A DNA stretch of 64,000 bases from Candidatus Kaiserbacteria bacterium (GCA_016182485.1 JACPGH010000007.1:27656-91655); one strand, 5' to 3'; counted from the stretch's first letter, positions 9,616 through 40,535 are shown. Notes: generated by a model not told the origin, from the letters alone. Made by a program: numbers and translations.

Positions 9616-11793
9616 ATGCAGGACGACCTGGTAGAAAAATACTTCCCGCGCTTGCGGCGGGAGCAGTTGAGCGCGCTGCGCAAACTGAAAATTCGGACCG
9701 CGCGCGACCTCCTATATCACTTTCCCTCGCGTTATGAACGCTCGGGCCCTTCGGCCCAGATCGCGGGAGTATCGGCGGGAGCCGAAGTAACGCTCTATGG
9801 GATGGTGAGAAAACCGGATGTGCGCAAGACTTGGAAGAGCCGCCGGCCGATAGCCGAAGCGTGGCTTGAAGACGCCTCGGGAAAGATCAAAATGATGTGG
9901 TTCAACCAGCCCTATATCGCGAAGACCTTGCATGACGGGATGGTGGTGAAAGCGCGCGGCCGCGTTTCGGGCGCGGGTTCGAAAGTTTATCTTGCGAATC
10001 CCGAGATCGATCGAACGCCTGTAAATCCGGAAGAGATGCATGACTCTCTCTTTCAACAAGGTCGAACCTTGGAACAAGGTTCGACCTTGGATACCGAGTT
10101 ATATCCTATTTATCCGGAGAGCCAGGGGGTGTCCTCTCTCTGGTTCTTCCACGCGGTGAAGAAGCTTTTCGAGACGCGCGTGCATGAGGGGCTTTCCGAT
10201 CCTATCCCTTCCGACATCCGGGAACGGTACAATCTGCCTGCGCTAACCCCGGCGCTTCTTCTCATGCACGCCCCGCGGCGGCCTGCGGACGCCGCGGCGG
10301 CCCGGAAGCGCTTCGCCTTCGAAGAGATCTTCGCGCTTCAGATCGTGATGCAGAAGCGCCGGCGCGCGCTCCAGTCGGAGCGCGCCCTGCCGGTGGCTGT
10401 GAACCGAGCGGCCCTGGAAGATTTCATCGCCTCGTTTCCCTTTCCGGCTACCGCTGCGCAGTTGAGGGCTATCAACGCAATACTCGCCGATTTCGAAAAG
10501 CCGCATCCGATGATGCGTTTGCTTGAAGGCGACGTGGGGAGCGGCAAGACCGCGGTCGCCGCGGCTACCGCTTATCTCGTCGCGACTTCCCTGCCCGTCG
10601 GTCGCATTGCCGGTGCGCTCCAGGTCGCCTACCTCTGCCCGACCGAGGTGCTCGCGAAGCAGCATTTCTCGACGTTCGTCTCCTATTTCCGCGACCATCC
10701 GATACCTATCGGACTCATTACCGGCAGCGAATGCCGGAAGTTTCCCTCCCGCGTGCGGTATGAAGAATCGGCCAAACTGTCGAAGCCCGCGTTCAAAAAG
10801 ATGGTGGCGGGCGGCGAGATCCCTATCGTCATCGGGACGCACGCGCTCATCGAGCAGTCGCTCTCGTTTAAATATTTCGCCTACGCGATTATCGATGAAC
10901 AGCACCGCTTCGGAACTGGCCACCGGCAAAAAATGGTTTCCAAACACGACATTCAGCCGCACTTGCTCTCGATGACGGCAACGCCTATTCCGCGCACGCT
11001 CGCGCTCACGCTCTACGGCGATCTCGACCTCTCGCTTCTTGACGAGATGCCGGCCGGGAGAAAAAAGGTAATTACGGAAGTCCTCGCGCCGAAAGAGCGC
11101 GAGCGCGCCTATGTCTGCGTACGCGCTGAGCTTGCGAAGCATCACCAGGTTTATGTAATCTGTCCGCGAATCGATGAGCCGGACCCGGCCAAAGAACTCG
11201 CGCTCCAGGCCAAGTCGGTGAAGGCCGAAGCGGCCCGCCTAAAGAAATCCGTGTTCCCTGAAGCGGTGATAGGCATCCTGCACAGTAAGATGACTCCGGC
11301 GGACAAGGAGCAGGCGATGGAGGAATTCAAGAAGGGAGAAATGCAGATCTTAGTGGCCACCTCGGTGGTCGAAGTGGGCGTCAACGTACCGAACGCGACC
11401 GTCATTCTCATCGAAGGGGCCGAACGCTTCGGGCTGGCCCAGCTCCACCAGCTGCGCGGACGCGTCATCCGCTCGACACACCAATCCTACTGCTTCGTCC
11501 TTCCGGAAACGACTGGACCTTCGACCCAAGAGCGGCTGCGGGCATTTAAGAACGCGCAGAACGGGTTCGAGCTCGCCGAGTACGACCTCACGCTCCGCGG
11601 CGCGGGCGAGCTCGCCGGCGGCAGGCAGTGGGGCGTCTCAGACATCGCCATGGACGCGCTCAAGAATCTCAAGCTCGTCGAAGCCGCCCGCGCCGAGGCG
11701 GCAAGCCTCATCGAGCGCGATCCGGAACTCGCGCGCCACCCGGAACTGGCGCGGCGCGCCTCCCTCGCCGGCACGGCGCTCCACCTCGAGTAG
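9616..11793 (+). CDS. recG: ATP-dependent DNA helicase RecG
   Basis: N-terminal wedge/OB domain, Walker A GDVGSGKT, DEQHRFG box, helicase C motifs. 725 aa. Confidence 0.85.
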   Translation: MQDDLVEKYFPRLRREQLSALRKLKIRTARDLLYHFPSRYERSGPSAQIAGVSAGAEVTLYGMVRKPDVRKTWKSRRPIAEAWLEDASGKIKMMWFNQPYIAKTLHDGMVVKARGRVSGAGSKVYLANPEIDRTPVNPEEMHDSLFQQGRTLEQGSTLDTELYPIYPESQGVSSLWFFHAVKKLFETRVHEGLSDPIPSDIRERYNLPALTPALLLMHAPRRPADAAAARKRFAFEEIFALQIVMQKRRRALQSERALPVAVNRAALEDFIASFPFPATAAQLRAINAILADFEKPHPMMRLLEGDVGSGKTAVAAATAYLVATSLPVGRIAGALQVAYLCPTEVLAKQHFSTFVSYFRDHPIPIGLITGSECRKFPSRVRYEESAKLSKPAFKKMVAGGEIPIVIGTHALIEQSLSFKYFAYAIIDEQHRFGTGHRQKMVSKHDIQPHLLSMTATPIPRTLALTLYGDLDLSLLDEMPAGRKKVITEVLAPKERERAYVCVRAELAKHHQVYVICPRIDEPDPAKELALQAKSVKAEAARLKKSVFPEAVIGILHSKMTPADKEQAMEEFKKGEMQILVATSVVEVGVNVPNATVILIEGAERFGLAQLHQLRGRVIRSTHQSYCFVLPETTGPSTQERLRAFKNAQNGFELAEYDLTLRGAGELAGGRQWGVSDIAMDALKNLKLVEAARAEAASLIERDPELARHPELARRASLAGTALHLE

Positions 11794-11796
11794 CAA

Positions 11797-11890
11797 ATTT
11801 TCAATGCTCAATTTCGCAATTTTTAATCAATTTTCAAACATTGATACATTGGGCATTATTTGAAAATTGGAAATTGTAAATTGAAAATTA
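11797..11890. repeat. AT-rich imperfect-palindrome element, family 1 (arms caattttcaa / ttgaaaattg around a loop acattgatacattgg)
   Basis: The same arm/loop layout recurs in every spacer from 11797 to 18339. Confidence 0.75.
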
Positions 11891-11902
11891 TGTTAGACTA
11901 AA

Positions 11903-12889
11903 ATGATGGATTTCCTCGCTATCGGCGACACGACCGTAGACGAATTTATCCGGCTCAAAGAAGCGAAGATCTCTTGCGACGAGAACAGGGATCATTGCAC
12001 TATTACGTTCCCGTGGGGCGAGAAAATTCCCTACGAGTCTTCGGTGCTCCTCCCCGCCGTCGGCAATGCGGCGAATGCGGCCGTAGCGGCGGCGCGCCTC
12101 GGACTCTCTGCGGGCCTCGTGAGCAATGTAGGTAATGACCGTTTCGGCGAAGAGACGCTCGCGGTTTTCCAGCGGGAAGGCGTCGATGTCTCCCATACGC
12201 GCGTCAACGACGGCATCCCTACGAATCACCACTACGTCCTATATTACGATTCCGAGCGGACCATCCTTATCCGGCACGAGGCGTATCCGTACGCTCTGCC
12301 GGAGAATATGACCGCCCCGAAATGGATATACCTCTCCTCGCTCGGCGAAGGCGCGCATGCCTTCCATGACGAACTCGCTGCGTGGCTCGCGGACCACCCG
12401 GAAACCAAGCTCGCTTTCCAGCCGGGCACGTTCCAGATACAGATTGGGCGGGAACGATTGAGAAATTTATATGCGCAAGCGGCAGTCTTCGCGAGTAACA
12501 AGCAGGAGGCGGAAAACATCCTCGGGGTTGGGGACACCGACGTCAGGAGTCTCCTTGAGCAAATGCGGGCGCTGGGGCCGAAAATTGTTCTTATCACAAA
12601 TGGCGTCGCCGGCGCCTACGGCTTCGATGGCGAGAAAATGCTCAAAGTCCCGATGTACCCGGACCCCAAGCCGCCTTATGAGCGCACCGGCGCCGGCGAC
12701 GCCGCCACCGCAACCTTCGTAGCCGCGCTCGCGCTCGGCAAACCTCTGGAAGAAGCGCTTCGCTGGGGACCGATCAACTCGATGTCGGTCGTCCAATTCC
12801 TCGGCGCGCAAGAAGGCCTGCTCTCTCGCGACGCGCTCGAGAAACTGCTCGCCGACGCGCCCGAATCGTACGCAGTAACCACGCTCTAA
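11903..12889 (+). CDS. PfkB-family carbohydrate kinase (ribokinase-like)
   Basis: N-terminal GG motif region and C-terminal TGAGDA anion-hole motif. Confidence 0.75.
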   Translation: MMDFLAIGDTTVDEFIRLKEAKISCDENRDHCTITFPWGEKIPYESSVLLPAVGNAANAAVAAARLGLSAGLVSNVGNDRFGEETLAVFQREGVDVSHTRVNDGIPTNHHYVLYYDSERTILIRHEAYPYALPENMTAPKWIYLSSLGEGAHAFHDELAAWLADHPETKLAFQPGTFQIQIGRERLRNLYAQAAVFASNKQEAENILGVGDTDVRSLLEQMRALGPKIVLITNGVAGAYGFDGEKMLKVPMYPDPKPPYERTGAGDAATATFVAALALGKPLEEALRWGPINSMSVVQFLGAQEGLLSRDALEKLLADAPESYAVTTL

Positions 12890-12892
12890 TTT

Positions 12893-13010
12893 TCAATTAC
12901 CAATTTTCAATTTACATTGAATTTTCAAAGCTTCAATTTTCAAACATTAATACATTGGAAATTGGAACATTATTTGAAAATTGTAAATTGCAAAATTGAA
13001 AATTATTTGG
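12893..13010. repeat. Family-1 AT-rich palindromic element (loop caaacattaatacattgg)
   Basis: Arms caattttcaa ... ttgaaaattg. Inverse orientation of the copy at 16709-16802. Confidence 0.75.
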
Positions 13011-13151
13011 GCTGTTCGAGCCCGTACATCACCCGATTCCCGAAGGTTTCCGCGAGCGTAACATCTGTCGCCACGCGCACGATGAGCAGGGCCGCGCCGC
13101 CGCCAATGATCGTAATGAGCAATGCTCCGATATAAGAATTCACGCAGGCCC

Positions 13152-14165
13152 TCATGCTGCCAATACTATATCGCGTACGAGCGCTTTTGCCGCCTCGATA
13201 ATGTGGGTAACATCAAGCCCGTAGCGCGCCAACAGTTCCTGGGGCGTACCCGATTGGCCGAATTGATCTTGTATCCCGAGCCGTTTGATGGACACGACGT
13301 GTCCATCAGACAAGAATTCCGCGACGGCGCTCCCGAAGCCTCCGGCCGTTTGGTGTTCTTCTAGAGTAAGTACGCGGCCCGCGCTTTCCGCCGCTTCGAG
13401 TATCGCCCCGGTATCGAGGGGCTTCACGGTCGGCACATGGAGTACGACCGAATCGATTCCCTGTTCTTCGAGAGCGCGCGCGGCTTCGAGCGCGGCGTAG
13501 CTCAAGGAACCGGTCGAGAATATGGCGATTTCTGGTTTCTGGTTTCTGGTTTCTGGTTCCCAGAGTATAAGCGCCTTCCCGATCTCAAATGGCGTTTCGC
13601 GAGTGGTGAACACCGGAGTCGCCGCGCGTCCGAAACGTAAATATACAGGCTCTCCCAGGGCAGCCGCCGCAATGACTGCCTTGCGCGCCTCCTCGGCGTC
13701 CGCCGGAGCGATGACCGTCATCCCCGGCAGCATCCGCATCATGCCTATGTCCTCGAGCATCTGGTGCGTGGCGCCGTCGGCGCCGACCGATACGCCCGCA
13801 TGCATCCCGCACACGATGACCGGCATATTGTTGAGAGCAATCGTGGTGCGTATCTGCTCATAATTGCGCCCGGGATTAAACGCGGCATAGCTTGCGATGA
13901 AAGGAATTTTTCCCGCCGCCGCCATGCCCGCCGCCACAGTGGCCATATTCTGTTCCGCGACGCCCATCTCGATGAACCGGTCCGGGAAGGCTTTTTGAAA
14001 TTGTTCGGCGCGGGTGGATTCGGCCAAATCGGCGCAAAGCACTACGACGCGCGCATCCTTTTCTCCCGCCTCCACGCTTCCCGTTCCGAACCCGTCGCGC
14101 GTCGGCGCCGTCTCGATATCGTTCGAAAAAATTTTCTGCGAAAGCTTTGCGGAAAGATCCAACAT
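13152..14165 (-). CDS. Transketolase, C-terminal section (split transketolase subunit B)
   Basis: Pyrimidine-binding and C-terminal domains. Carries an in-frame (tggtttc)x3 microsatellite at 13533-13556. Confidence 0.85.
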   Translation of the reverse strand: MLDLSAKLSQKIFSNDIETAPTRDGFGTGSVEAGEKDARVVVLCADLAESTRAEQFQKAFPDRFIEMGVAEQNMATVAAGMAAAGKIPFIASYAAFNPGRNYEQIRTTIALNNMPVIVCGMHAGVSVGADGATHQMLEDIGMMRMLPGMTVIAPADAEEARKAVIAAAALGEPVYLRFGRAATPVFTTRETPFEIGKALILWEPETRNQKPEIAIFSTGSLSYAALEAARALEEQGIDSVVLHVPTVKPLDTGAILEAAESAGRVLTLEEHQTAGGFGSAVAEFLSDGHVVSIKRLGIQDQFGQSGTPQELLARYGLDVTHIIEAAKALVRDIVLAA

Positions 14166-14294
14166 AATTTTCGATTTACAATTTACAATTTACAAATAAG
14201 GACCAATTTCCAATTTTCAAACAAAGATTCCCGTTTGAGCATTGCACATTGAAAATTTCATTGGAAATTGCAAAATTGAAAATTGAAAATTCTT
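14166..14294. repeat. Family-1 AT-rich palindromic element
   Basis: Arms caatttacaattt... / ...ttgcaaaattgaaaattgaaaatt. Confidence 0.75.
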
Positions 14295-15209
14295 TCATGT
14301 TCTCTGTATTTGAGCTAAGAACCGCTCCCCTTCCTCCGCCGAAGGCGGCTTCCCATGCCACCTATAATCCCCTTCGATTTCCGGCACGCCCTTGCCGGCG
14401 GTCGTATGCGCGATGATTAGCGTCGGAGCGTCCGATACTGCCTTCGCTTCTTCAACCGCCCCGACAAATGCGTCCAAATCGTGCCCATCCACTTCGAGCA
14501 CGCGCCAGTTAAACGCGCGGTACTTCTCGGCGAGCGGTTCGAGCGGCATGACCTCCTCGGTATTGCCGTCGATTTGAATGTTGTTGCGATCCATGATCGC
14601 CGTGAGCCCGGCGAGACGGTGCTTCCCCGCGAACATGGCCGCCTCCCAAGTATTCCCCTCGTCCTGCTCGCCGTCGCTCATCACGCAGTAAATTCTAGGC
14701 GCTAGGCTATAGGCGCTAGGCTCTAGCTCTGATCCGTTTTTAAAATTGGAAATTGAAAATTGTCCGCCGGAGGCGGATCCGCCTTTGGCGGAAAAATTTT
14801 TAAGAGCCCACGCCATTCCCGCCGCCTGCGAGAGGCCCTCGCCAAGAGGCCCTGAGGTGGTTTCGAGACCTGTCAGCCGCGTTCTCTCGGGATGCCCTTG
14901 GAGCCGCGAGCCGAATTTCCGCAATGTGAGACATTCTTCGACCGGGAAATAGCCGGCATGAGCCAGAGTCGCGTACAAGACTGGGCAGATATGCCCGTTG
15001 CTGAGTACGAGCCTATCTCGTTCTTCCCAATCCGGCCGCGCAGGGTCGTGTTTCAAGATATGAAAATAAAAGGCGGCGAAGATGTCCGCCATGTCGAGCG
15101 GCCCCGCCGTGTGGCCGCTGCCCGCGGCGACAAGCATCCGGATCACAGTCTCGCGAATGGCCCGAGCCTTTCCCTCAAGCAGCCGAATCTCCTCATCAGT
15201 CAAAGCCAT
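14295..15209 (-). CDS. Transketolase, N-terminal section (TPP-binding subunit A); contains an in-frame ~25-aa repeat-derived insert
   Basis: GHxxxxxD and GDGE TPP motifs. An insertion (…KNFSAKGGSASGGQFSISNFKNGSELEPSAYSLAP…) is encoded by 14695-14775. Confidence 0.85.
   Translation of the reverse strand: MALTDEEIRLLEGKARAIRETVIRMLVAAGSGHTAGPLDMADIFAAFYFHILKHDPARPDWEERDRLVLSNGHICPVLYATLAHAGYFPVEECLTLRKFGSRLQGHPERTRLTGLETTSGPLGEGLSQAAGMAWALKNFSAKGGSASGGQFSISNFKNGSELEPSAYSLAPRIYCVMSDGEQDEGNTWEAAMFAGKHRLAGLTAIMDRNNIQIDGNTEEVMPLEPLAEKYRAFNWRVLEVDGHDLDAFVGAVEEAKAVSDAPTLIIAHTTAGKGVPEIEGDYRWHGKPPSAEEGERFLAQIQRT
14695..14775. repeat. Composite in-frame insertion inside the transketolase gene: ctaggcg/ctaggct tandem repeat plus a family-1 AT-rich motif (aaaattggaaattgaaaattg)
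   Basis: Direct sequence identity to the intergenic family-1 arms. Reading frame preserved. Confidence 0.7.
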
Positions 15210-15235
15210 GCTCTAAGTATACAGCATGAAACTAC

Positions 15236-15365
15236 CCTAATTTTTCAATTTACAATTTCCAATTTTCAAATAATTACCAATCTCCAATTTTCAAACAAAA
15301 TCCTTGTTTGGACATTGAATCATTGAAAATTGATTGAAAATTGCAAAACTAAACATTGAAAATTC
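15236..15365. repeat. Family-1 AT-rich palindromic element
   Basis: caatttacaatttccaattttcaa ... cattgaaaattgattgaaaattg. Confidence 0.75.
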
Positions 15366-16112
15366 TTAAACCCCGTAGGGATATTGGGCGATATACAACG
15401 CCTCGAACTCGGCGATGGCCTTTGCCGGATCTGCGGCTCGCAATATGCTCGAACCGACCACGAGATTCGAGACTCCGGCGGCAATAAGCCGCTTGGCATT
15501 ATGCAGGGAAACGCCGCCGTCAACCTGGATCGGGAGCCGCGGATATTTCTCGCGCAGGACGCGGATTTTCTCGAATACGCGCTCGTCGAAGGGCTGTCCT
15601 TGGCGGCCGATCCGCGCGATACCCATGCACTGCACGTACTGAACACAGCGGATACAGGGCTTGTCCTTCGTAGCTTCAGCGAAGAAGGGCTCGATGAGCG
15701 CAAGACTGCTCGCGAGATTAATTGCGAGACCGATCGAGAAGCCGCCGGCCTCTCCGAACCGTTCGGAGAGCGAGCCGAGAAGGCGCGGCAGGTCTATGGG
15801 GCTCTCGGCATGTATCGTGAGGCGGCTGGCGCCGAGAGCGAGCCATGCCGCCGCAGCCGCCTCCGCATCGATACACATGATATCGACTTCATACTCGACC
15901 GCGCCGAGCCGCGGCAACATGCCTTCCCAATTTTCAATTTCCAATTTCCAATTTTCAATGCTATACGGCCAGGAGGCAGGCGAGGCGAACTGCCCGTCTA
16001 CGACGTCGATCTGGATACGGTCAATCGAGGGAAGACTCGTGAGGAGTGCGAGTTTTTCTGCCAGCTCTTTTTTGGATGCGGGCAAAACGGCTGGAACGAC
16101 AAATGACATAGC
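15366..16112 (-). CDS. rpe: Ribulose-phosphate 3-epimerase
   Basis: IDVVDGQF…, HxMV-equivalent region, C-terminal VDGG(V)…GSSIL. Start set at MSFVVPAV; the upstream ORF extension only reads through the AT-rich element. Contains an in-frame repeat insert at 15927-15960 (IENWKLEIENW). Confidence 0.8.
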   Translation of the reverse strand, partial: AMSFVVPAVLPASKKELAEKLALLTSLPSIDRIQIDVVDGQFASPASWPYSIENWKLEIENWEGMLPRLGAVEYEVDIMCIDAEAAAAAWLALGASRLTIHAESPIDLPRLLGSLSERFGEAGGFSIGLAINLASSLALIEPFFAEATKDKPCIRCVQYVQCMGIARIGRQGQPFDERVFEKIRVLREKYPRLPIQVDGGVSLHNAKRLIAAGVSNLVVGSSILRAADPAKAIAEFEALYIAQYPYGV

Positions 16113-16216
16113 AAGAAAATTTTCAATTTTCAATTTTGCAATTTTCAAACGTTTGAAAATTAATACATTGAAAATTATTTGTAAATTGAAAATTGTAAAT
16201 TGTAAATTTGGTCATT
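16113..16216. repeat. Family-1 AT-rich palindromic element
   Basis: ttttcaattttcaattttgcaattttcaaacg ... ttgtaaattgaaaattgtaaattg. Confidence 0.75.
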
Positions 16217-16708
16217 CTAGAATTTCGCCAGCCTTCGCGCGTGGCGCGGCGAATCAGAGAACGGCGTGTTCAGGAAAATGCGGACCGCTTCGTCGGCTTC
16301 GCTCCCCGAAACGAACCGGGCGCCGATGCAGAGCACGTTCGCGTTATTGTGCCGGCGCGGGAGGCGCACGGCGTCATACCCGTCCTCCGAGCGGCCGCCT
16401 TCGATGTCGAGCGCTTCGGTCACCCGCATGGGGCCGTAGAAGACCGCGGCGCGGACGCCGGGCACTCGATTGGCGCACATCGCTTCGCCCTGCCCGCTGC
16501 CCCCGAGCGCGATGCCGCGCGCTTCGGGCTCGGCCGCCACGCGGCGGGCGAGCGCCCCGACGACGTCCGGATAATCGTCATCCGGCGCGAGCGAGTACGC
16601 GCCCAGGTCTTCGGCCTCGTGTCCGAGCGCCCGCACGTGCTCGAGGAGCGCGTTCTTCAGGTCAAACCCGGCGTGGTCAGAAGCAAAATAAATTTTCATA
16701 ATTTTCAA
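16217..16708 (-). CDS. rpiB: Ribose-5-phosphate isomerase B (RpiB/LacAB family)
   Basis: MKIYFASDHAGF… and the catalytic Cys region (GSGQGEAMCANR). Confidence 0.85.
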   Translation of the reverse strand: MKIMKIYFASDHAGFDLKNALLEHVRALGHEAEDLGAYSLAPDDDYPDVVGALARRVAAEPEARGIALGGSGQGEAMCANRVPGVRAAVFYGPMRVTEALDIEGGRSEDGYDAVRLPRRHNNANVLCIGARFVSGSEADEAVRIFLNTPFSDSPRHARRLAKF

Positions 16709-16802
16709 TTTTGCAATTTACAATTTTCAAATTATGTCCCAATTTCCAATGTATTAATGTTTGAAAATTTATTGTAAATTGCAAATTGATAATTGAGAAT
16801 TG
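16709..16802. repeat. Family-1 AT-rich palindromic element, inverse orientation
   Basis: Loop ccaatgtattaatgtttg is the reverse complement of the loop in the 12893-13010 copy. Confidence 0.75.
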
Positions 16803-17852
16803 TCACTTGGCCGTGCCGGCCGCTAGGACGTGCCGGACAAGTGACTCCGTATACCCCATCTCGTTGTCGTACCAAGCGAGCACCTTGACGAGATTGCCGT
16901 CCACGACCCGGGTCATGCCGAGGTCAGCGATCGAGGCGCACGGCTCTCCCACGATATCGCTTGAAACCAGCTCCTCATCGGTGGTCATGAAGAGGCCCTC
17001 CCAACGCGAGTCAGCCGCCGCCTTCCGCAAAATGTCATTGACTTCCTCGGCGGATGTCGGCCGCTTCGAAACGAAGGTGATATCCGCGATAGAGCCGGCT
17101 GCCACCGGCACGCGCAGGCTTATCCCGTCGAATTTCCCGGCGAGCGACGGGTACGCCTGCGTCACGGCGACGGCCGCGCCGGTCGAAGTCGGCACGATAT
17201 TAAGCGCGGCCGCCCTCCCTTCCTTCTTGTCTTTTCGCGAAGGCCCGTCGACGATAGACTGACTCGCTGTGTAAGCATGCGCCGTCGAGAGTATCGCCTT
17301 TTCGATACCAAGCGCCTCGTCGAGTATCGCTATGACCGGACTCGCGGCATTCGTCGTGCACGACGCATTCGAACTTATCTGACATGTCGAGAGCTTCTCC
17401 TCATTCACCCCCATCAGCACCGTGGCTCCTAGCGACTGGCTGCTAGTGGCTAGTGGTTGGTTTTTGACCGGTGCAGTGATGACAACACGCTTCGCTCCGG
17501 CCGCGAGATGCGCGCTCGCCTTCTCATAATCGGTGAACAATCCCGTAGACTCGACCGCTACATCGATACCGAGCTCCCCCCAAGGCAAATTCGCCGGCTC
17601 CTTTTCCGAGAAGAACTTCACTTCCTTCCCGTCAATCAGCAAAGCTGATTGCCCCGAGCTTGTCGAGGGGCTGATCCCGACCGAAAATGGCGCGCGCCCA
17701 TATACGGTGTCGTACTTCAATAAATAGGTTAGGTTTTCAAGCGAGCCGAGATCATTCACGGCGACCACTTCGATTCCGCGGCCCTGACTTCTCCTCGCAA
17801 ACGCGCGCCCTATTCGTCCGAATCCGTTAATGGCGACTCTAATGGGTTTCAT
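16803..17852 (-). CDS. gap: Glyceraldehyde-3-phosphate dehydrogenase (type I)
   Basis: NGFGRIGR Rossmann motif and catalytic SCTTN. Start set at MKPIRVAING; the upstream ORF extension is read-through of the repeat. In-frame repeat-derived inserts at ~17423-17460 and ~17640-17680. Confidence 0.85.
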   Translation of the reverse strand: MKPIRVAINGFGRIGRAFARRSQGRGIEVVAVNDLGSLENLTYLLKYDTVYGRAPFSVGISPSTSSGQSALLIDGKEVKFFSEKEPANLPWGELGIDVAVESTGLFTDYEKASAHLAAGAKRVVITAPVKNQPLATSSQSLGATVLMGVNEEKLSTCQISSNASCTTNAASPVIAILDEALGIEKAILSTAHAYTASQSIVDGPSRKDKKEGRAAALNIVPTSTGAAVAVTQAYPSLAGKFDGISLRVPVAAGSIADITFVSKRPTSAEEVNDILRKAAADSRWEGLFMTTDEELVSSDIVGEPCASIADLGMTRVVDGNLVKVLAWYDNEMGYTESLVRHVLAAGTAK

Positions 17853-17933
17853 GATGATAGTGTAGCATGGCCAAAAATGAGAATTTTCAATTTTGCAATT
17901 TTCAATTTTCAATAAATTTTCAAGGCTCAATTT
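17853..17933. repeat. Family-1 element, left-arm type (caattttcaa repeats), abutting the 3' end of the 4HB gene
   Basis: gagaattttcaattttgcaattttcaattttcaataaattttcaaggctcaattttcaaac. Confidence 0.7.
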
Positions 17934-18293
17934 TCAAACGGATCGCGCCGAGGCAGCAATTTTTTGGAAAATTAATGTTAATTCTTGGCTCTCTTTCTGT
18001 AATCTCCCTAAAGCATCGTCTTCTATCGTCCCACAGGACACCAGCATCCTAAGCCAGTGCTTCGTTTCTTGTATCTCTTTTTTGCATATGTAAATCTTGT
18101 TGACGAAATCTCTTTTTGAGCTGGCGCCGTTCGCTTCCATATAATTGGCTCCTACGCTCGTACCAGAGCGTAAAAGTTGGTTAACAATTGGATCTGTTAT
18201 ATGACTACGATGGATTTTCTTACAAAGCGATATAATTTCTTCACCAAACCGAGCCGTTCTTTCTTCTAGATCGTATTTCTTCGTTTGATCCAT
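17934..18293 (-). CDS. Four-helix-bundle protein (PF05635/TIGR02436, '23S rRNA intervening-sequence protein' family)
   Basis: 119 aa. Motifs LRSGTSVGANYMEA and RDFVNKIYICKKEIQETKHWL match the 4HB family. Sits exactly between a left arm and a right arm of a family-1 element. Confidence 0.75.
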   Translation of the reverse strand: MDQTKKYDLEERTARFGEEIISLCKKIHRSHITDPIVNQLLRSGTSVGANYMEANGASSKRDFVNKIYICKKEIQETKHWLRMLVSCGTIEDDALGRLQKESQELTLIFQKIAASARSV

Positions 18294-18339
18294 TGAAAAT
18301 TGGTCCTTATTTGAAAATTGGAAATTGTAAATTGAAAAA
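18294..18339. repeat. Family-1 element, right-arm type (ttgaaaattg repeats), upstream of the 4HB gene
   Basis: ccattgaaaattggtccttatttgaaaattggaaattgtaaattgaaaaatt. Confidence 0.7.
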
Positions 18340-21300
18340 TTATTGTGGCGTTGTCGAAGTTTCGGTAGCCGCGGAGAGGGGCTCGATTACTGTCACTAGC
18401 CTCGAAACCGAACCCGTGTTCCCCGCCGCGTCCGTCGCGCTGTAGGTGAGCGTGTATGAGCCGGCTGTTGCGGTATCTGCGGAACCCGAGGTCGCGATTT
18501 TTGCCGTTAGGTCTCCGTCCGTTTCATCTGTAGCGGTCGCCCCCGGGTCTGTGAAGGTCTGACCTTCACTGATCTGCATCGCCGCCTCTCCGTTCAAGGT
18601 CACGATCGGAGGTTGAGAGTCTGAATCCGGACTTATGACTTCCGACTCTGGAGTAGCGCTCGACTCTTGACTCGTGACTTGTGACTCTTGACTTGTTGTA
18701 CCGGCTACTACGCTCCCGTTGCCTACGATCACCGACCGCGTCGCCATGATGCTCCCATTCGGCCCGAGTACGCGATAGGTGATTATGTAGGTCGTCTCGC
18801 TTGAGGTATCAATAGTCCCCGGGCCGACTTCCGACTCCACGCCGTTGATATAAGTCGTTACGGGCGCACCCCCTGCATCGATTCCCGGATCAACGAAGTT
18901 CCCCCCGACCTCGATCAGATAAGGATTATCCCCGAGCACCGTAATCCATTGGGTGCTCGTGTTTGAATTGGAAATTGAAAATTGAGAATTGGAAATTTGT
19001 GACTCTGGCGTGCTTGTCGCCATCTGCCCTTCCGTCTGGATCAAGAAGTAATCGAAGGAGGTGTCTCCCGCCTGCGGGCTCTCGAGCACGAGGCGGAAGG
19101 AGCCGTCCTTCTTCTCCGCGATATACCAGGAGCCGGTCGTCGAGGCGGTGAAGGTGACGAATATCTTGGTCGAGGGCTTCACGTAGGCGTTCTGCACCTC
19201 CGCGACCGTGTTGCCGGCGATTATTTTCACCGTCCCGGCCGAGCTCGTACCGGCGGAATTCGTCGCCGCGACGAACTGGTCGGCCACGAGCGTGCCGAAC
19301 TGCGCGATGCCCTTCGCGATATAGGCGCCAAAGGCGTTAAAGGCGCTCGCGAGCGAGGTCGTCGAGAAGGAGACCGGCGAGCCGGAGGCAGAGGAGACCG
19401 CGCCGCTCTCGAGCGCCGCGAGGCGCGCCTCGAGCGAGGTGAGCCGCACCTCGGCGCGATCGACCTTCTCGGCGAGCGTCTGCACGCCCGCGAGGGTCAG
19501 GGTCGCGAGCTTGTAGAGATCCACGCCGTTGCCGTCTATCGAGAGGATCTCGGGCGCCGTCTCCCGCGCATCCTCGGCAATGAGGCCGAGCCGGAGCGGG
19601 TTGCTCCCGGCCTCTGCCGCGTAGCGATACGTCGCGACCTTGAGCCCGCGAACCTTGCCCAGCACGGCCTCGGTCGAGCTCGCGCTCATATAATTGATGT
19701 CGGTCTTGAGCGCGCGCGTCGAAGTGTTCACGAAGCTCGTCGCGCTCACTTCCTGCGCCGTGAGGCGATTGATGTAGCCCTCGTTCGTCACCGCGAGATT
19801 CGATGTCCACACGGAGGTCGAGGCGACAAAAGAATCCGCCGCTACGTTGCCATATACTGTGAACAAGCCGGCAGCTTGGTGCGGAAACGATCCTGTCACT
19901 TCGATTTCTGAGGGTTCGATTCCCTCTGCCGGCTTTTGCAGGTTTTCCACAATGCTTGCCGGGGTGCTTGACGCGTAAACCCAGTTTGCTATAATAGGTG
20001 CGGTGACAGGCTCGTTTCTCGCAGAAATCGAACCCTCGTAAGAGAACCCGAAGTAGCCGCCCGTAAGGGCGGTTATTTCGTTTTCCAGCGTCCCTACCCT
20101 CCCCGCGAGCCGCGTCGAAGTGGTGCTCAGCTCCTGTATCGCCAGTATCATCGGCGCGGCGAGGCCGTCGTAATTGATGGAGAGCGTGCCGTCGGGCGTG
20201 AGCGAGGTGGGGGCGGAAGTCTGTACGAGATCCGGGAACACCTCTCGCACCTGCTGGGCGATGAGGCCGAATTGCTTCTGGCTCGAGCGCTCCGCCGCCG
20301 GATCCCAGTAGAAAGAAACGGGCCGGAGCGCGTCGATCGCAGACAGCCCGCTCGCTGTCGCGAGCGGGCTTATATCCTGCTTCAGCCGCTCGTCAGACGC
20401 GGAGCAGGCGAGGAGGCCGTTGCCGTTAGACGTGAAGCCGGTGCAGTTCTTGTAGCCGTCGAAGGTGACGTTCGCCGTCTCCCCGCCGACTTCAAGCAGG
20501 GTCGCGGGCGTCGTAGTCCCGAGGCCTATCGCGCTCGCGCTCATGTAGATCGGCTGGACGCCGCTCCCCACGAGGCGCGAGGTGATGATGAGATTGCCGG
20601 TTGAGGCGTCGATGCCGAATTCGCCGATGTAGTTGGGGTCGGAGCCGTTGTAGATGGTCATGGCGGAAGCGCTCCCCGCGGTCGTCACGATCGAGAAGCG
20701 CTCGCTTTGTCCGCCGGGGCTTGCCGTCCCAATCCCGACATCACCGGAGTCGTCGATCACGAACGGCGTCGGGTCGCCTGCCTGGTCGTTCACGGCGAAG
20801 GAGAGCGCGGCGCTCGTATTCTCGACCGCGAACTTCGCGAACGGCGTGCTCGAGGCGATGCCGACCCGCTCGTTCGTGGCGACATAGAGCGAGGAAGTGG
20901 CGGTGAGGGTCGTACCGGTCCCCGCATAGTATGGGAACTGCCCGGCCGTGCCGGAACCGACCGTCCCTGTCCCGCTCCCGCCTCCCACGCAGACTCCGTT
21001 AATCGCAAAACATCCTGTTCGTATATCAATGCCGGAGCCGAACGTGGACGTGGCGGTCGCCGAAATGTTAATCGTATTGGCTCCCGTATCTCCAAGCGAG
21101 AGCAGCGTCCCCGGACTCGTCGTCCCGATGCCGACGTTGCCTTCTATTATCATCCCGTTAGTGGGAGCCGCCGCACCGTAATTTGTTCCCACGGAAACCC
21201 CTCCAGCAATACTCAATTTACTTCCCGGAGTAGTGGTGCCAATACCAACCCTCTGGTTGTACCCTCCAGAGACACCGCCAATAAAGAACGGCGTGTAGCT

Positions 21301-24300
21301 CGTGGAGAAATCTCTGACAGCAGCCGTGTTTTGCTCAATAGAAAAGAAATCAGTCGTATTTCCTACATGGAGCCGCCAGATACCTTCAGAAGTTGCATAA
21401 TTCTTGTTGTCCATTACGAAGTAATTGTCTCCGCCGGTTGTGGTTTGAAGAATGCTTAATGGCGTTGTCGTCCCTATGCCGACGTTGCCAGTGCTGTTTA
21501 TCACCATTTGTGTAGCATTGCCGCCTGTTCGGAAAGACATGCCTCTCGATAGCCCGTTGGGACTGTAGAAAACCCCCCCATCAGCTACGTTATTCGGGCT
21601 TCCAAACAACAAAGCTTGCTCATTAGCATTTGGAGCAAGAAGAGATAGGTAATTTGAGCCACTGTTTTCAACCGTCAGGACTGTCCCCGCAAGAGGGGTA
21701 ATCCCCGAAAATCCTCCTGTTACATGCAATTTACTCTGCGGACTCGTCGTCCCGATCCCGACGTTGCCATTCTTTATAATAGTCATGTAGTTCGAGATGG
21801 TAGAACCATCCCAGACGCCAAAGTCGAGTGCCATATTGCTGCCGCCGGGCGCCCGAGTTTGGATACGAGCGAAGTCATACCCTCCGGTGGCCGTATCGCT
21901 AAAGAGGAGCCCGATAGCATCACCGGTTTGTCCTCCAAAACCGCTCGTACCAATTTTGGCTACGCTTGTCAGGCTTCCTGCGACTCGTGTACCGGAAACA
22001 GTTAATGTATTTGTAGGCGTCGTCGTCCCGATGCCGACATTTCCGGTGCTTGCTTGAACGGTTAACTTAGGATTGCCACTGATAGACAATTGCACATCTC
22101 TGTTTGAACTTAACATCGCATATGTAGAATTGTCCGTGGAGAGATAATGGCTTTCATCACCAAAGAAAATATTCCCGGCTACTGAAAGTTTTCCTCCAGG
22201 TGCCGCCGCCCCAATCCCCACATTCCCATTCGCCAGCACGGTCATGAGGGTGGAAGTCGACGTGCCAGCAGTCGTAGAGGCGATAGTGAACAGCGGCGTG
22301 TTTACAGCGGTTCCCGCAGCGTTCGAAATCGAGAGGATTGAATACGGCGAGGTCGTCCCGATGCCCACGTTGCCGCCGCTTGTGATGCGCATTTTTTCAG
22401 AGGCATTGGTAGTAAACCCAAGATAGCTACTTCCAAAAATGCCGTAGCCAGTGAGGTTTGAAATATTTACGGCTGGAGTCTCTGCGGTACTTTGAGCTTG
22501 TTCATCAAACGAAGCCCGGCCGAAGGCGTCAATCTTAAACCATTCCTGGGCAGTCGTCAGGTCGGTACCATTTATCAAAACCGCGCCATTACCGGTAGTG
22601 CCGCGTAAAATTAGGCGAGTGTTGTTGGTCGTGGTGTTCGCTATTTCCAAATGACCGACCGGACTCGTCGTCCCGATGCCGACGTTGCCGGCAGTCGTGA
22701 TTGTTAATTTTGCGCCATCAGAAGGAACGGCGTTATTTGTCGTTATGTAGAATTTATTTTCAGAATCATCCCCGAGTCCCATTGCCCAATTCGTCGTTCC
22801 ATTTGTCTGGAATTCTAGCTCATTGTTATTGGTTACAGCTCCACGATTCAATCTCAAATAATTGTGGCTGCCGGAATCAAACCTTGAAACAAGATTCGAG
22901 CTTTTATAGACATCCAATAATACACCCGGCGTCGTTGTCCCAATCCCGACGTTGCCAGTCTGCACTATCAAAGCTGCGTGACTTGCATCAGCCATGTTTA
23001 TGTGAAGACCTCGCTGTATGCCTGCGTTTGATTGCGACCCTCCGGTTATTCTTAGACCGGTATTTATTCCGTTTGTCCCTGAGCCTGTCGTAGCGCCGGT
23101 CGTAATATCTATGCCGTAAGATTCCTGCGCATTGCCGCCGCTGTGATCTTTTCTCATGGTTGGGGTGGTAATTTGTACGCCCCTCCATGTAAAGCCGCCC
23201 GTATTCCCTAACCAATTCCCGGAGGTAATCTCGATTCCCCGAACTGTCGCGACATCGCCGCCTTGATCAAATTGGCCGGGGCTGCCTGTCTCGATCCTAG
23301 CTCCCGTGAGGGTAGCTGGCGCATTATTCATGGTGAAGGTTGGCATCTTGAGAACCAACCCTCTCTGCGTAACTCCCGAGGCATTGGTTACATTGGTATT
23401 CGCATCGAGAGTCGCAAGGTCAAAAGTAGAGCTTATAGCCGAAGGCTGTGCAACCGCCAATCTGCTTTCGGGACTCGTCGTCCCAATCCCAACATTCCCA
23501 TTCCCGTCGATCACGAAGCGGTCGTCGGTGCCTAAGGCGGATGACGACGCGATTTTGAATTTGCCTCCGTCGGAGTAATCCATGCCCATTGTCCACTTGT
23601 ACGTCGGCCCCGCGAGCGCTGATAATTCGATTGCGACGTCGTTCGCCGGCTGATAAAGAGTCAGGACTTGATTAGCGCTCGTCGTCGCAATGCTCAATTT
23701 TCCGTCACCGCTGCCAGTACCCTGCGCGGTTATGAATGGAATCGTTGCACCCACATATAGTTTAAAAACATCATTCCCTCCGCTAAGAGCCGTGTTATCC
23801 CAATCGTCGGAATTGCCTAAGTAGACAACTCCGTTCCCTCCGGTGCTTTTTGAAGAGCCTACTATGGCAATCCCAGCTGCTGAAGAGCTGCCCCACGCCC
23901 TTTCGAACAGCGCATTAAGCCAGCTGTCTGGGGTATCGGTAATACCCGCGCTTTGGGCTGTGTCGCGGACATGCAAATCCGCCCAAGGACTCGTCGTCCC
24001 GATGCCGACGTTGCCGCCGTTTGGATTTATCAACGCGCTGCGGTTATTAGCGGAATGAGCTTGCAGAGTCAAATTCCCGGTAGAGGTGTTATACAATTCG
24101 AGGTATCCATAGATAGAAGTGTTATCAAGACCTGAGCGAATTTGCTGAGAGTACGGCTGGAATATATCTCCGGCTACATGCAAGGTTGCGAGAGGACTTA
24201 CTGTTCCAATCCCAACATTGGAAGTTGTTGCCGATACAGTAAGGACATTTGTGCCAACTTGTAATGTAGCTCCGGGATTGGTAGTCCCGATGCCGACGTT

Positions 24301-38021: not shown

Positions 38022-38795
38022 CTATCTGTCTATTTCATAGACTACTACCCCTGCCATGAGCGAGGCTCGTTTATCCGATTCTATATATTTATCGAAATAT
38101 CCAGTGCCAAGTATCGCCAGGGCCATAGTACACACGGCAACTAAAGCTCCAGACAGATATATCGCAGAGACCATCCTCTTTCCTCTGCTTTTAGGCTGAT
38201 CGTCTCCTTTATCCTCTGCTTCCTTCGGGAAATCCGGCAGCAGCTCCTTAGGAGGATGCCGGTATATGGCGCGGATTGGTATGTCTACCGATTCTTCGCT
38301 CTTCTCTCCGGGTCCTTCCACGCGTTCCGCGCGCTCTTCAGGCTCGAAATTGGCCTTCTCTATTTCGTTGGACGCTGTAATTGGGGTCGTAGCTATGCTT
38401 GCAACCTGCTCAAACCATGATTTCCAAGTCTCTGCCATATTCAATGGCGCAGATTCCGCGGAATTGTTCTCATCCGCGGATATCCGCTGATTTGAATCGG
38501 CGGTTATCAGCTCCTCCAGAGGAGCAGGCCCGTAGCGTGGAGATTCCCAGGCAGAAGAGACAAAAGATCGTGACTCATGGCTCTTTCCCCTCTTAGGCTC
38601 CTGTTTGGGAGTCTCCTCGCCGAAGCGATGATCGCGGACCGCAGTCTCAAGAACATACCAATTCCGACCTACTAGCCTGGCAGGCAGACGCCCTTCTCGG
38701 CACAGCTGCCCTATGTAATCCTTCGCATACCCGGTTACCTTCGCAGCTTGTTTTGACGATATGTACTTCTTGTCTTCGATAAGCAGCTCGTCCAT
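38022..38795 (-). CDS. Small paralogue of the giant protein's N-terminus: HTH_17-type DNA-binding domain + RISAD repeat region + C-terminal TM anchor (257 aa)
   Basis: KYISSKQAAKVTGYAKDYIGQLCREGRLPARLVGRNWYV aligns with the giant N-terminus. Shared palindromic DNA motif atccgcggatatccgctgat. C-terminal hydrophobic helix. Confidence 0.6.
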   Translation of the reverse strand: MDELLIEDKKYISSKQAAKVTGYAKDYIGQLCREGRLPARLVGRNWYVLETAVRDHRFGEETPKQEPKRGKSHESRSFVSSAWESPRYGPAPLEELITADSNQRISADENNSAESAPLNMAETWKSWFEQVASIATTPITASNEIEKANFEPEERAERVEGPGEKSEESVDIPIRAIYRHPPKELLPDFPKEAEDKGDDQPKSRGKRMVSAIYLSGALVAVCTMALAILGTGYFDKYIESDKRASLMAGVVVYEIDR

Positions 38796-40374: not shown

Positions 40375-40535
40375 AATCTCAAATCGCAAGATCCAAGATG
40401 AGTGCCCAAGAACCAACCTCTAAGAACCAAACAAAAACCAATGTCCAAAGGACCAATGTTTTATTTTTGAAGATTGGTGCTTGAAATTTGTTTGGTACTT
40501 GGGGTTTGGTGCTTGGAATTTAGTATTTTTGAGAG
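40375..40535. repeat. Family-2 AT-rich imperfect-palindrome element (arms caagaacca… / …ttggtgcttgg), complete copy between gatB and obg
   Basis: Left arm ccaagaaccaacctctaagaaccaaacaaaaaccaatg and right arm cattggtc…ttggtgcttgaaatttgtttggtacttggggtttggtgcttgg are roughly reverse-complementary. Confidence 0.7.

Follow-up and report, generated by a model that had tools for sequence, protein, structure and literature searches.

Gene-less AT-rich hairpins in the gene junctions of a Candidatus Kaiserbacteria bacterium as probable derivatives of an intervening-sequence-like cassette

The AT-rich hairpins in the junctions of sugar-metabolism genes of this Candidatus Kaiserbacteria sequence are probably non-autonomous, ORF-less derivatives of a palindromic cassette that resembles an intervening sequence (IVS) and is located in protein-coding junctions. 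The cassette consists of two inverted arrays of about five heptamers each (AATTTNC ... GNAAATT) around a PF05635/TIGR02436 gene of ~120 aa, whose start and stop codons sit in the inner arm ends. The features of the window, i.e. the whole 64-kb stretch of DNA that was analysed, are listed in Table 1.

Table 1. Repeat elements and associated ORFs, with positions counted from the first nucleotide of the window
Feature	Position	Strand	Support
S1, gene-less family-1 hairpin, RecG/PfkB junction	11794-11902	-	palindrome 11796-11889; RNA fold -25.5 kcal/mol, z -4.08
S2, gene-less family-1 hairpin, between PfkB (+) and conserved 50-aa ORF	12890-13002	-	palindrome; z -4.99
Conserved 50-aa ORF, convergent with PfkB	13003-13155	-	
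S3, gene-less family-1 hairpin, TktN/TktC junction	14166-14294	-	z -3.38
In-frame 28-aa insertion in TktN	14695-14800	-	gap when aligned to orthologues
S4, gene-less family-1 hairpin, Rpe/TktN junction	15210-15365 (palindrome 15236-15365)	-	z -3.92
Family-1 heptamer array inside Rpe	15927-15959	-	TRF and motif matches
S5, gene-less family-1 hairpin, RpiB/Rpe junction	16110-16216	-	z -2.92
S6, gene-less family-1 hairpin, GAPDH/RpiB junction	16700-16802	+	z -4.48
Cassette 1 downstream arm, GNAAATT units on coding strand	17853-17933	-	palindrome; long-range pairing
IVP1, 119 aa, PF05635/TIGR02436 four-helix-bundle protein, cargo of cassette 1	17934-18293	-	Pfam E 2.8e-18
Cassette 1 upstream arm, AATTTNC units on coding strand	18294-18339	-	palindrome; pairing; consensus of 50 cassettes
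Family-1 heptamer array, 3' part of giant ORF	18966-18997	-	TRF and motif matches
Family-2 heptamer array inside GatB, KSQEPNLKNQTSTNDQNSK	39682-39738	-	
Family-2 gene-less hairpin, Obg/GatB junction	40400-40525	-	fold -37.2 kcal/mol, z -4.38
Cassette 2, IVP2 between inverted AAGWACC / GGTTCTT heptamer arrays, SecA/Obg junction	41490-41978	-	
IVP2 ORF, 119 aa, 33% identical to IVP1	41572-41931	-	tblastn E 1e-18; Pfam E 2.6e-12

Results

The family-1 repeats form a real family. Allowing at most one mismatch, TTGNAAATTGNAAATTG was found 30 times in the 64-kb window against 0.03 expected matches; all of these lie at 11860-18991, and the AT-rich islands carrying the motif are confined to 11788-19006. 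The elements have a G+C content of 0.19-0.27. Their period is 7, or 15 as the sum of 7 and 8, according to TRF, and thus 7-8 bp overall, with a lag identity of 0.54 at lag 7 compared to 0.26-0.28 at lags 10-11. A preliminary description of this DNA had reported a phasing of the A/T tracts of 10-11 bp and predicted intrinsic bending from it; since the period is 7-8 bp, the bending argument falls together with the phasing on which it was built. It had also listed eight spacers with one type of palindrome. Six of them, S1-S6, are indeed complete imperfect palindromes that each fold into a long hairpin of ~100 nt (z scores against dinucleotide shuffles in Table 1), while 17853-17933 and 18294-18339 are the two arms of a single palindrome. 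The six elements are ORF-free and 103-156 nt long, with arms that are 71-80% complementary, and they occupy all junctions between RecG and the giant ORF. This includes the junction between the convergent PfkB and 50-aa ORF, where S2 agrees with the hairpin described earlier between convergent genes.

Partial family-1 copies within ORFs had been overlooked; they are present in TktN, Rpe and the giant ORF. The TktN insertion has three parts: CTAGGCG heptamers in tandem, family-1 heptamers at 14739-14762 and, at 14763-14792, a GC-rich palindrome. The array in Rpe encodes ENWKLEIENWE with an unchanged net length. Throughout the window there are heptamer arrays built from many unrelated units, some of them inside ORFs.

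The single large palindrome, cassette 1, lies between the giant ORF and GAPDH, and its arms enclose IVP1. This protein matches TIGR02436 (E 5.2e-24) and PDB 2RLD (E 9.3e-15) and has more than 5,000 homologues; we know of no catalytic activity in this four-helix-bundle family. The stop codon of IVP1 is located within GTTTGAAAATTG at the inner edge of the downstream arm, and the upstream arm closes with ...CCAATTTTCA directly before the ATG. In the minimum free energy and centroid folds, the arms (17882-17931 and 18292-18341 in the palindrome scan) pair across ~400 nt. Domain searches detected no RT, transposase or integrase among the larger ORFs of the window.

The gene-less hairpins are related to this cassette. 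Read on the minus strand, S1 is cassette 1 without its ORF: it matches the cassette arms, one of them identically over ~34 nt, and CAATG is fused directly to TTTGAAAATTG. S3-S5 retain CAAAC(G)...GTTTG, matching the first and last codons of the cassette ORF; S3 has an inner mini-stem CAAACG...TGTTTG, and S5 keeps CAAACG/TTTGA, which corresponds to codons 3-4 and the stop region. In one relative (L109), an intermediate form still carries ~6 codons from the start of the ORF (MNQRKK) together with its stop region. The hairpins also include sister copies, namely S2 and S6, which lie in opposite genomic orientations, and S3 and S4, which share 90% identity over 58 nt. S6 spans its spacer exactly from stop codon to start codon.

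In 80 species-level relatives with conserved GAPDH-RpiB-Rpe-TktN-TktC synteny, the orthologous junctions lack the hairpins. The median junction lengths in these relatives are 25, 55, 47 and 28 nt for GAPDH/RpiB, RpiB/Rpe, Rpe/TktN and TktN/TktC, compared to 103, 107, 156 and 129 nt in the window. Cassette 1 is shared at the orthologous site by only one relative (L002), which has no solos, i.e. gene-less copies. Another (L082) instead carries a full cassette in GAPDH/RpiB, the junction of S6, and a related element in RpiB/Rpe. Since the same gene order exists without the hairpins, these are insertions and not conserved regulatory signals. The preliminary description had considered promoter or terminator cassettes as well as a MITE-like family, and had named conserved gene order with unrelated spacers as the finding that would speak against its reading. 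The comparison went against promoter or terminator cassettes, as the relatives express the operon without these spacers, and the evidence as a whole favours a MITE-like family: the elements are absent in relatives, occur as sister copies and are derived from a larger gene-bearing palindromic cassette.

A second family in the same window repeats this organisation. The paralogue IVP2 has a heptamer (AAGAACC), a gene-less hairpin and an in-ORF array of its own; the right arm of this hairpin codes for the C-terminal ~19 residues of Obg. In L178, an orthologous cassette 2 with the same arms is present and the Obg/GatB junction measures 16 nt. The family-2 solo was found in all sister assemblies of the same population, with no strain-level polymorphism among them.

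The design of a gene between complementary heptamer arrays is general. It was found in 70 of 74 metagenome loci, with flank complementarity above the 95th percentile of the controls, and period-7 arrays were present in both flanks of 54/74 loci compared to 8/262 control ORFs. Arm pairing is 81.7% in register versus 54-58% when shifted by one column. All further lineages sampled (9/9, from several phyla) show the same design with other heptamers, and none of 40 cassette loci overlaps an rRNA gene. Beyond the effect of column composition, the two arms covary only modestly, with 21 of 500 shuffles attaining the covariation score, so that selection for RNA pairing is not separable from conservation of the unit sequence; RNAalifold yielded no consensus structure for the arms.

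Discussion

For the mechanism of mobility and any effect on expression, we infer the following course. One ancestral cassette between the giant ORF and GAPDH would have seeded gene-less copies into every neighbouring junction, and array fragments would have entered nearby ORFs in frame. A copy in the operon transcript would form an extended A-U-rich stem and thereby draw the stop codon on one side close to the start codon on the other. In a lineage where translation starts without Shine-Dalgarno motifs, such a copy would be nearly neutral. By analogy with rRNA IVSs, each copy is probably a substrate of RNase III. The spread appears to be local and copy-like and would depend on some factor, possibly the encoded protein. 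All family-1 copies lie within 7 kb, so that local duplication or gene conversion may have acted in place of true transposition. The behaviour is MITE-like, but the elements are not MITEs, because the parent encodes a four-helix-bundle protein and no transposase. No target-site duplications were seen on reading the junctions, where the A/T-rich repetitive ends would mask short ones.

An alternative is that the elements are mobile promoter cassettes whose GNAAATT arm, with hexamers resembling -35 and -10 boxes, gives each gene a leaderless-type promoter, either TTGAAA-N17/18-GAAAAT or TAAATT located 7 nt ahead of the ATG. Pairs of promoter-like hexamers are more frequent than in shuffles (18 versus 5.1 +/- 1.9) and lie mostly in the arms. 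The start layout of the lineage is a -10 box, 6 nt and the ATG, and Shine-Dalgarno-like motifs precede only ~2-14% of orthologous starts. An arm reaches the ATG at TktC, RpiB and Rpe, and likewise at LepA in three relatives (L111, L132 and L135). However, the hexamer matches arise from the repeat unit itself: they occur on both strands, which would cause antisense transcription, and several end just 2 nt from the ATG. Furthermore, the same genes are expressed in relatives without the elements, arrays of the same unit also lie inside ORFs, and TktN and GAPDH keep a native TATACT/TACACT box between element and ATG (for TktN, GTATACT at ~15216-15222, downstream of S4). This explanation is considered unlikely.

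The heptamer arrays could also be putative cognate binding sites of a pentameric four-helix-bundle protein with about five units per arm, in which case the solos would be putative additional sites that regulate or organise the locus and not selfish copies. Each paralogue has its own heptamer with solos of that heptamer nearby. Arms mostly comprise 4-6 units, PDB 2RLD contains five chains, and a Xanthomonas homologue is a homopentamer (PMC4990558). In the IVP1 subfamily, the unit sequence is more conserved than pairing requires, and its variable sixth base is often unpaired. The related protein Avd works in the RNA-templated reverse-transcription complex of diversity-generating retroelements (bioRxiv 10.1101/2023.10.23.563531). 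In the L080-type subfamily, by contrast, the units diverge widely between proteins that are ~60% identical, which fits a constraint on pairing and periodicity better than sequence-specific reading, and the absence of the elements in relatives argues against a needed regulatory role. A function as binding arrays in place of selfish copies thus seems doubtful.

Intercistronic terminators, or REP-like 3'-end stabilisers that shield the upstream mRNA from 3' exonucleases, are improbable. Elements of this kind would set operon stoichiometry; long hairpins in every junction, one of them convergent, are consistent with this, and REP/BIME and Correia elements provide precedents. None of S1-S6 was flagged in the intrinsic terminator scan, which predicted 12 sites compared to 13.3 expected, the imperfectly complementary stems are A-U-rich with no consistent U-tract, and the elements are absent in relatives. 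Finally, it is very improbable that the arrays are by-products of replication with no link to a gene, i.e. heptamer microsatellites created by polymerase slippage and made palindromic by template switching: this would fit the many unrelated heptamer arrays across the window, ORFs included, and slippage has been proposed for the excess of heptamer repeats in bacteria (PMC4692102), but it accounts neither for the conserved loop motifs and oppositely oriented sister copies nor for the association with one gene family in 70/74 loci, nor for the fact that one and the same cassette occupies different junctions depending on the species.

Comparison with known systems

The closest known relative of the cassettes is the rRNA IVS with an S23p ORF; IVSs of this type break up ribosomal RNA into fragments. 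Short ORF-less rRNA IVSs of ~100 nt also exist, for example in Salmonella. In both kinds of element, the cargo family is the same, inverted repeats at the two ends pair into a stem enclosing the ORF, and tandem heptamers of variable copy number immediately precede the start codon. Among the elements of the window, terminal inverted repeats form a stem, and a PF05635 ORF lies in the loop of the two cassettes, while the six solos carry none. In Coxiella, the IVS contains an S23p ORF whose start codon is preceded by tandem heptamers, and its 28-bp terminal stem is cleaved by RNase III (PMC4990558). IVSs with S23p (PF05635) are found in the 23S or 16S rRNA of Coxiella, Leptospira and Brucella and among the rRNA insertions of CPR bacteria, and, like the present cassettes, are regarded as selfish elements (PMC4990558; PMC11270868). 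Unlike these, the elements described here occupy junctions of protein-coding genes and in some cases the genes themselves, each of the two arms is a complete heptamer array, and ORF-less copies have multiplied locally. Insertion into an rRNA helix is not seen, as Rfam detects no rRNA and only one tRNA in the window; the 64 kb also contain no RNase III gene.

With MITEs and Correia (NEMIS) elements, the hairpins share a length of ~100 nt, the lack of an ORF, terminal inverted repeats, an intergenic location inside operons, multiple copies, presence or absence between relatives and the derivation from a longer gene-bearing element. They differ in that a four-helix-bundle protein is the sole product of the parent cassette, with no transposase in it or among the ORFs of the window, in that the arms are tandem heptamer arrays and not unique terminal inverted repeats, and in that the copies stay close to the parent, at distances of a few kb, and are not dispersed, as far as 64 kb shows.

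Hairpin-forming extragenic repeats in operon junctions are also a feature of REPs, BIMEs and REPINs. REPs are G+C-rich palindromes of 20-40 bp with GTAG/CGTC ends (PMC3733652), and REPINs are hairpin-forming doublets tied to one cognate gene (PMC3116915). Membership in this group was rejected, as the elements are ~100 nt long, low in G+C and built from heptamers, and no RAYT gene was detected in the window.

Heptamer arrays are known from cyanobacterial STRR, from TAACTGA in Beggiatoaceae, cyanobacteria and Bacteroidetes, and from GGGAATC in Xanthomonas, with 70-75 convergent inverted pairs of the latter per genome (PMC4679880; PMC4692102). As in the present elements, these are intergenic tandem heptamers, often 1-2 nt from a start codon lacking a Shine-Dalgarno motif and occasionally in ORFs; the arrays described there are mostly direct, in contrast to the palindromic cassette arms. 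In the passages searched, neither source mentions the PF05635/S23p family.

Avd has the same fold as IVP1 and belongs to the same superfamily (PMC10053308). The position of IVP1 directly behind the 3' end of the giant ORF corresponds to that of avd behind its target, but the IVP1 gene is bracketed by heptamer arrays. A diversity-generating retroelement was rejected, since the window contains no RT domain, no template/variable repeat pair and no long direct repeat involving 18340-19000. TIGR-Tas arrays combine tandem interspaced guide-RNA repeats, with a unit size of 36 nt, with a Tas protein, and feature a Nop domain. The family-1 repeats have a period of 7-8 nt and are palindromic. TIGR-Tas systems are reported from parasitic bacteria and phages (PMC12045711).

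The elements differ from the known S23p IVSs in their presence in protein-coding operons and in their MITE-like derivatives. As a tentative and rather speculative extension, PF05635/TIGR02436 genes might be the signature cargo of a widespread, unrecognised class of mobile elements. Their inverted ends of ~5 heptamers would match a pentameric protein that recognises its own arrays as RNA or DNA hairpins; they would insert co-directionally into transcribed DNA, i.e. rRNA helix tips, operon junctions and, in frame, ORFs, and shed ORF-less hairpins and solo arrays. If this were true, rRNA IVSs, much of the unexplained heptamer excess (STRR, TAACTGA and the GGGAATC inverted pairs) and stand-alone Avd-like proteins would have a common origin.

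Repeat units and hairpins of family 1

Within the window, which has a G+C content of about 55%, only the stretch 11788-19006 contains AT-rich islands bearing AATTTNC/GNAAATT units. With at most one mismatch, the pattern TTGNAAATTGNAAATTG was matched 30 times, all within 11860-18991, compared to 0.03 matches expected from shuffles. Six of the islands, S1 to S6, are gene-less hairpins in gene junctions, referred to here as solos. Their arms are 71-80% complementary, and each solo is predicted to fold as RNA into one long hairpin (z -2.9 to -5.0 against dinucleotide shuffles). An Rfam search returned no family matching the hairpins. Given the excess of matches and the six palindromes, the hairpin family shared between spacers that the preliminary description had proposed is largely correct, but its period and its last two members have to be revised. 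The repeat period is 7-8 bp (according to TRF 7, or 15 as 7+8), and base identity is highest at lag 7 (0.54), with only 0.26-0.28 at lags 10-11. Therefore, the 10-11-bp phasing reported before is wrong, and the intrinsic bending or curvature deduced from it is unsupported.

The last two spacers, 17853-17933 and 18294-18339, had been taken for whole elements. Instead, they are the two arms of a single palindrome, 360 nt apart, and enclose the 119-aa ORF IVP1; this unit is called cassette 1. It lies in a gene string comprising RecG followed by the PfkB kinase on the plus strand and, on the minus strand, a conserved 50-aa ORF, TktC, TktN, Rpe, RpiB, GAPDH, the 119-aa ORF and a giant 6352-aa ORF. 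When the 493-nt cassette 1 unit is folded, pairing of one arm with the other is predicted by the MFE structure as well as by the centroid. The start codon of IVP1 is found in the context ...CCAATTTTCA-ATG, its stop codon in GTT-TGA-AAATTG, and thus both are located within arm-proximal motifs. The solved structure nearest to IVP1 is 2RLD. Exact-protein look-ups of GAPDH and IVP1 gave no match; homologues of IVP1 number more than 5,000, and many of them are 65-80% identical across different Parcubacteria lineages.

Features of the window with their positions
Feature	Positions	Description
S1	11794-11902	complete imperfect palindrome
S2	12890-13002	complete imperfect palindrome
S3	14166-14294	complete imperfect palindrome
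S4	15210-15365	complete imperfect palindrome
S5	16110-16216	complete imperfect palindrome
S6	16700-16802	complete imperfect palindrome
IVP1	17934-18293	minus strand; PF05635 '23S rRNA intervening sequence protein', E 2.8e-18; TIGR02436 'four helix bundle protein'
IVP2	41572-41931	minus strand, wedged between SecA and Obg; PF05635, E 2.6e-12
Family-2 gene-less hairpin	40400-40525	Obg/GatB junction; z -4.38
Family-2 unit array	39682-39738	inside GatB
TTTCTGG array	13529-13558	inside TktC; coincides with in-frame +4 aa versus orthologues
CTAGGCG array	14695-14726	inside TktN; part of in-frame +28 aa versus orthologues
GCTAGTG array	17442-17456	inside GAPDH; coincides with in-frame +6-7 aa versus orthologues
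GACTCGT array	18662-18693	inside giant ORF
G+C-rich mini-palindrome (TCCGCCGGAGGCGGATCCGCCTTTGGCGGA)	14763-14792	nested in TktN insertion, beside family-1 array
Giant ORF	18340-37398	about 28 protein-repeat copies (DNA core GGACTCGTCGTCCCGATGCCGACGTTGCC, plus strand)
Tandem duplication	35569-35670	perfect, 51 nt; giant ORF
GC-rich palindromes	35719/36715, 36141/36261	giant ORF
Third small repeat family	36874-36916, 37081-37123, 38466-38508	palindromic core ATCCGCGGAT-ATCCGCTGAT; giant ORF 5' end and upstream of next gene
CTGGAGG/CTGGATG heptamer arrays	211-251, 530-570, 35481-35521	first two 93% identical, 319 nt apart
Ribonucleotide reductase ORF	2615-4996	Pfam domain matches fragmentary (barrel domain 586-629 only)

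The hairpin-forming, insertion-polymorphic solos S1 to S6 derive from a PF05635 cassette. Read on the strand of the cassette, S1 is AATTTTCAATTTACAATTTCCAATTTTCAAATAA...CAATG/TTTGAAAATTGA..., with one arm identical to a cassette 1 arm across about 34 nt and CAATG directly abutting TTTGAAAATTG, the ORF being absent between them. S3, S4 and S5 retain CAAAC(G)...(T)GTTTG, which matches codons 3-4 (CAA ACG) and the last codons plus stop of IVP1, and an intermediate form in the metagenome locus L109 still contains the first six or so codons (MNQRKK) and the stop region. S2 and S6 are sister copies in opposite genomic orientation, and S3 shares 90% identity with S4 over 58 nt; such sister pairs suggest that solos were copied from solos.

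Presence and absence in relatives

The window belongs to a Candidatus Kaiserbacteria-type member of the Patescibacteria. The gene order GAPDH-RpiB-Rpe-TktN-TktC-(small ORF)-PfkB is kept in the comparison set of 80 species-level relatives (TktN identity 62-75%), with median junction lengths of 25 nt for GAPDH/RpiB (103 nt in the window), 55 nt for RpiB/Rpe (107 nt), 47 nt for Rpe/TktN (156 nt) and 28 nt for TktN/TktC (129 nt). No family-1 solos were found across 1.2 Mb of the relatives' loci. A first strict regex census undercounts arms and served only for contrasting sets of loci. Only one relative's locus, L002, contains a cassette at the orthologous site between the giant ORF and GAPDH; its arms match those of cassette 1, and the genes downstream abut or overlap. 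In L082/L083, a cassette lies between GAPDH and RpiB, which is the position of S6 in the window, and the RpiB/Rpe spacer contains another AT-rich heptamer-array hairpin with loop motifs as in family 1. Judged by this comparison of sequences, S1 to S6 are insertions rather than conserved signals, and among the options considered beforehand a MITE-like family comes nearest, as presence and absence among relatives favours a mobile family.

The function as promoter or terminator cassettes that had also been considered is unsupported, since a conserved gene order without the hairpins, as found in the 80 relatives, had been named beforehand as the refuting outcome. The arms contain more promoter-like hexamer pairs than expected (18 compared to 5.1), but these point both ways along the DNA and are a built-in property of the repeat unit. 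The hairpins are not terminator-like. A DGR, whose protein Avd belongs to the PF05635 family (PMC10053308), was excluded because there is no RT and no TR/VR pair, and TIGR-Tas arrays were set aside on repeat geometry (7-8-nt palindromic units).

Extra small ORFs occur in the GAPDH-RpiB-Rpe-TktN-TktC operon junctions of many relatives (L005-L078), including a 53-member family of 99-204 aa paired with an ORF of about 85 aa encoding a membrane protein, as well as toxin-antitoxin-like pairs. The junction ORFs were considered as PF05635 genes, but most belong to a pilin-like family and to toxin-antitoxin pairs, and only the ORF of locus L080 is related. These junctions seem to act as landing sites in general.

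A second cassette and further arrays

IVP2, which is 33% identical to IVP1, has AAGWACC/GGTTCTT arrays (family 2) as arms and forms cassette 2. Another Kaiserbacteria genome (L178) contains the orthologous cassette with identical arm units, and its Obg/GatB junction measures only 16 nt and lacks the solo. In the window, the last 19 or so residues of Obg (NSKHQTPSTKQISSTNLQK) are specified by the family-2 solo, namely by its right arm (40464-40525), and Obg is 340 aa long compared to 324 aa for the L178 orthologue. No presence/absence difference was seen at strain level, where the sister assemblies all carry the family-2 solo. Solos of both families are found 3' of their cassette, at distances within 2-7 kb. 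The analysis shows that the cassette unit gives rise to gene-less hairpins and adds peptides in frame to housekeeping enzymes. With its two cognate protein/heptamer pairs, this one genome provides a concrete, testable model system.

For the TTTCTGG, CTAGGCG, GCTAGTG and GACTCGT units, the window contains no cognate cassette. GC hairpins comparable to the mini-palindrome in TktN are nested within downstream cassette arms of the loci L142, L103, L126 and L155, and the mini-palindrome could represent a second inserting element, smaller in size. The CTGGAGG/CTGGATG arrays may represent a further array family flanking something small, and the ribonucleotide reductase ORF may also bear insertions.

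Generality of the cassette design

The design of a PF05635 gene combined with heptamer arrays is general, and a survey of roughly 90 related loci shows that the S23p-type gene, known from rRNA intervening sequences (IVSs), is normally flanked by inverted heptamer arrays. The flanks are mutually complementary in 70 of the 74 metagenome loci for which both flanks are available (exceeding the 95th percentile for control ORFs from the same contigs), and period-7 arrays occur on both flanks in 54 of these 74 loci compared to 8 of 262 control ORFs. The consensus of 50 cassettes is (AATTTTC)x4-AATC-AATTTTC-AATG ... AATT-GAAAATT-CAAT-(GAAAATT)x4, with mostly 4-6 units per arm. Since RNAalifold gave no consensus structure for 50 arm constructs, the arm pairing used to assess register and covariation was specified by hand. 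Pairing is clearly register-specific: 81.7% of the cells pair in this register, and a shift by one column lowers this to 54-58%, a shift by two or three to about 30%. Covariation of the arms beyond column composition is modest, its score being reached by 21 of 500 shuffles. The sixth base of the unit is often unpaired, and at the last base a compatible change in both arms, with G:T wobble included, was found at 12 of the 16 loci departing from C:G.

Genes neighbouring a cassette are co-oriented in 88-90% of cases, and none of 40 cassette loci is located in rRNA genes. The unit lies mainly between protein-coding genes of Patescibacteria, and also of Gammaproteobacteria, Planctomycetota, Bacteroidota and Desulfobacterota. 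In Thiohalocapsa halophila (L161 3001-3357, NRRV01000037.1), it is inserted in a BREX defence operon, flanked by pglZ and brxL, and has GTGGTTA/TAACCAC arms. Other cassettes were found between pilin genes in Parcubacteria (TAGTTTG arms), after dnaN in a marine lineage (TAGCTTR), at the YebC/RuvC junction of a further bacterium (TAGAGGG) and inside a CO/xanthine-dehydrogenase-type operon in Gemmataceae (GAAATCC x4/GGATTTC x4), while AAATNCS-type arrays form the arms in Salinimicrobium and Desulfobulbaceae. The divergent PF05635 ORF of L080 has AGTCATA/TATGACT arrays, and its contig also contains a solo hairpin built from these units. A rationale of heptamers as three-frame stops in each array, true of TAG-containing units and the GNAAATT arm, was dropped as a general rule because AAGAACC and GAAATCC arms do not fit.

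Possible mechanism

Within an operon transcript, a solo would fold so that the base of its stem places the stop codon of the preceding gene next to the start codon of the following one. Such insertions would be tolerated because the lineage scarcely uses Shine-Dalgarno sequences. SD-like 4-mers precede about 2-14% of orthologous starts, and starts are either of a leaderless type (GTATACT + 6 nt + ATG) or tightly coupled. This leaderless-type arrangement is conserved upstream of TktN and Rpe in L002, L003, L011, L028 and others (about 15216-15222 in the window), which points to leaderless mRNAs in the clade, each gene being directly preceded by a -10 box. By homology with rRNA IVSs, the solo stems are probably RNase III substrates, and cleavage would cut the polycistronic RNA between cistrons. 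The spread is likely to be local and copy-like; no RT, transposase or integrase was found in the window.

Relation to known systems

In genome annotation, genes labelled 'four helix bundle protein' and the AT-rich hairpins beside them should be treated as insertions and not as regulatory signals of operons, and length variation of CPR enzymes can stem from heptamer arrays. PF05635 ORFs in insertions of CPR rRNA genes have been termed functionally uncharacterised (PMC11270868 / bioRxiv 10.1101/2024.02.27.582315). Heptamer arrays have been reported from Nostoc and from Xanthomonas, which has 70-75 inverted pairs per genome (PMC4692102). They are also known from Beggiatoaceae, cyanobacteria and Bacteroidetes, in which they adjoin start codons lacking an SD sequence and are sometimes found inside ORFs (PMC4679880). 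Both the arrays and the bacterial excess of heptamer repeats are unexplained (PMC4692102, PMC4679880). A literature search for heptamer arrays tied to PF05635 genes outside rRNA found no such link. More broadly, our results imply that PF05635 genes together with heptamer arrays make up a single, widespread type of cassette. rRNA IVSs have been known since 1990, with their origin, mobility and the role of the S23p ORF unexplained (PMC4990558). The IVS in the 23S rRNA of Coxiella contains an S23p ORF of the PF05635 family, terminal inverted repeats forming a 28-bp stem that is cleaved by RNase III, and strain-variable tandem GACAGAT heptamers just 5' of the start codon (PMC4990558). The element described here is best filed with the IVS/MITE kind.
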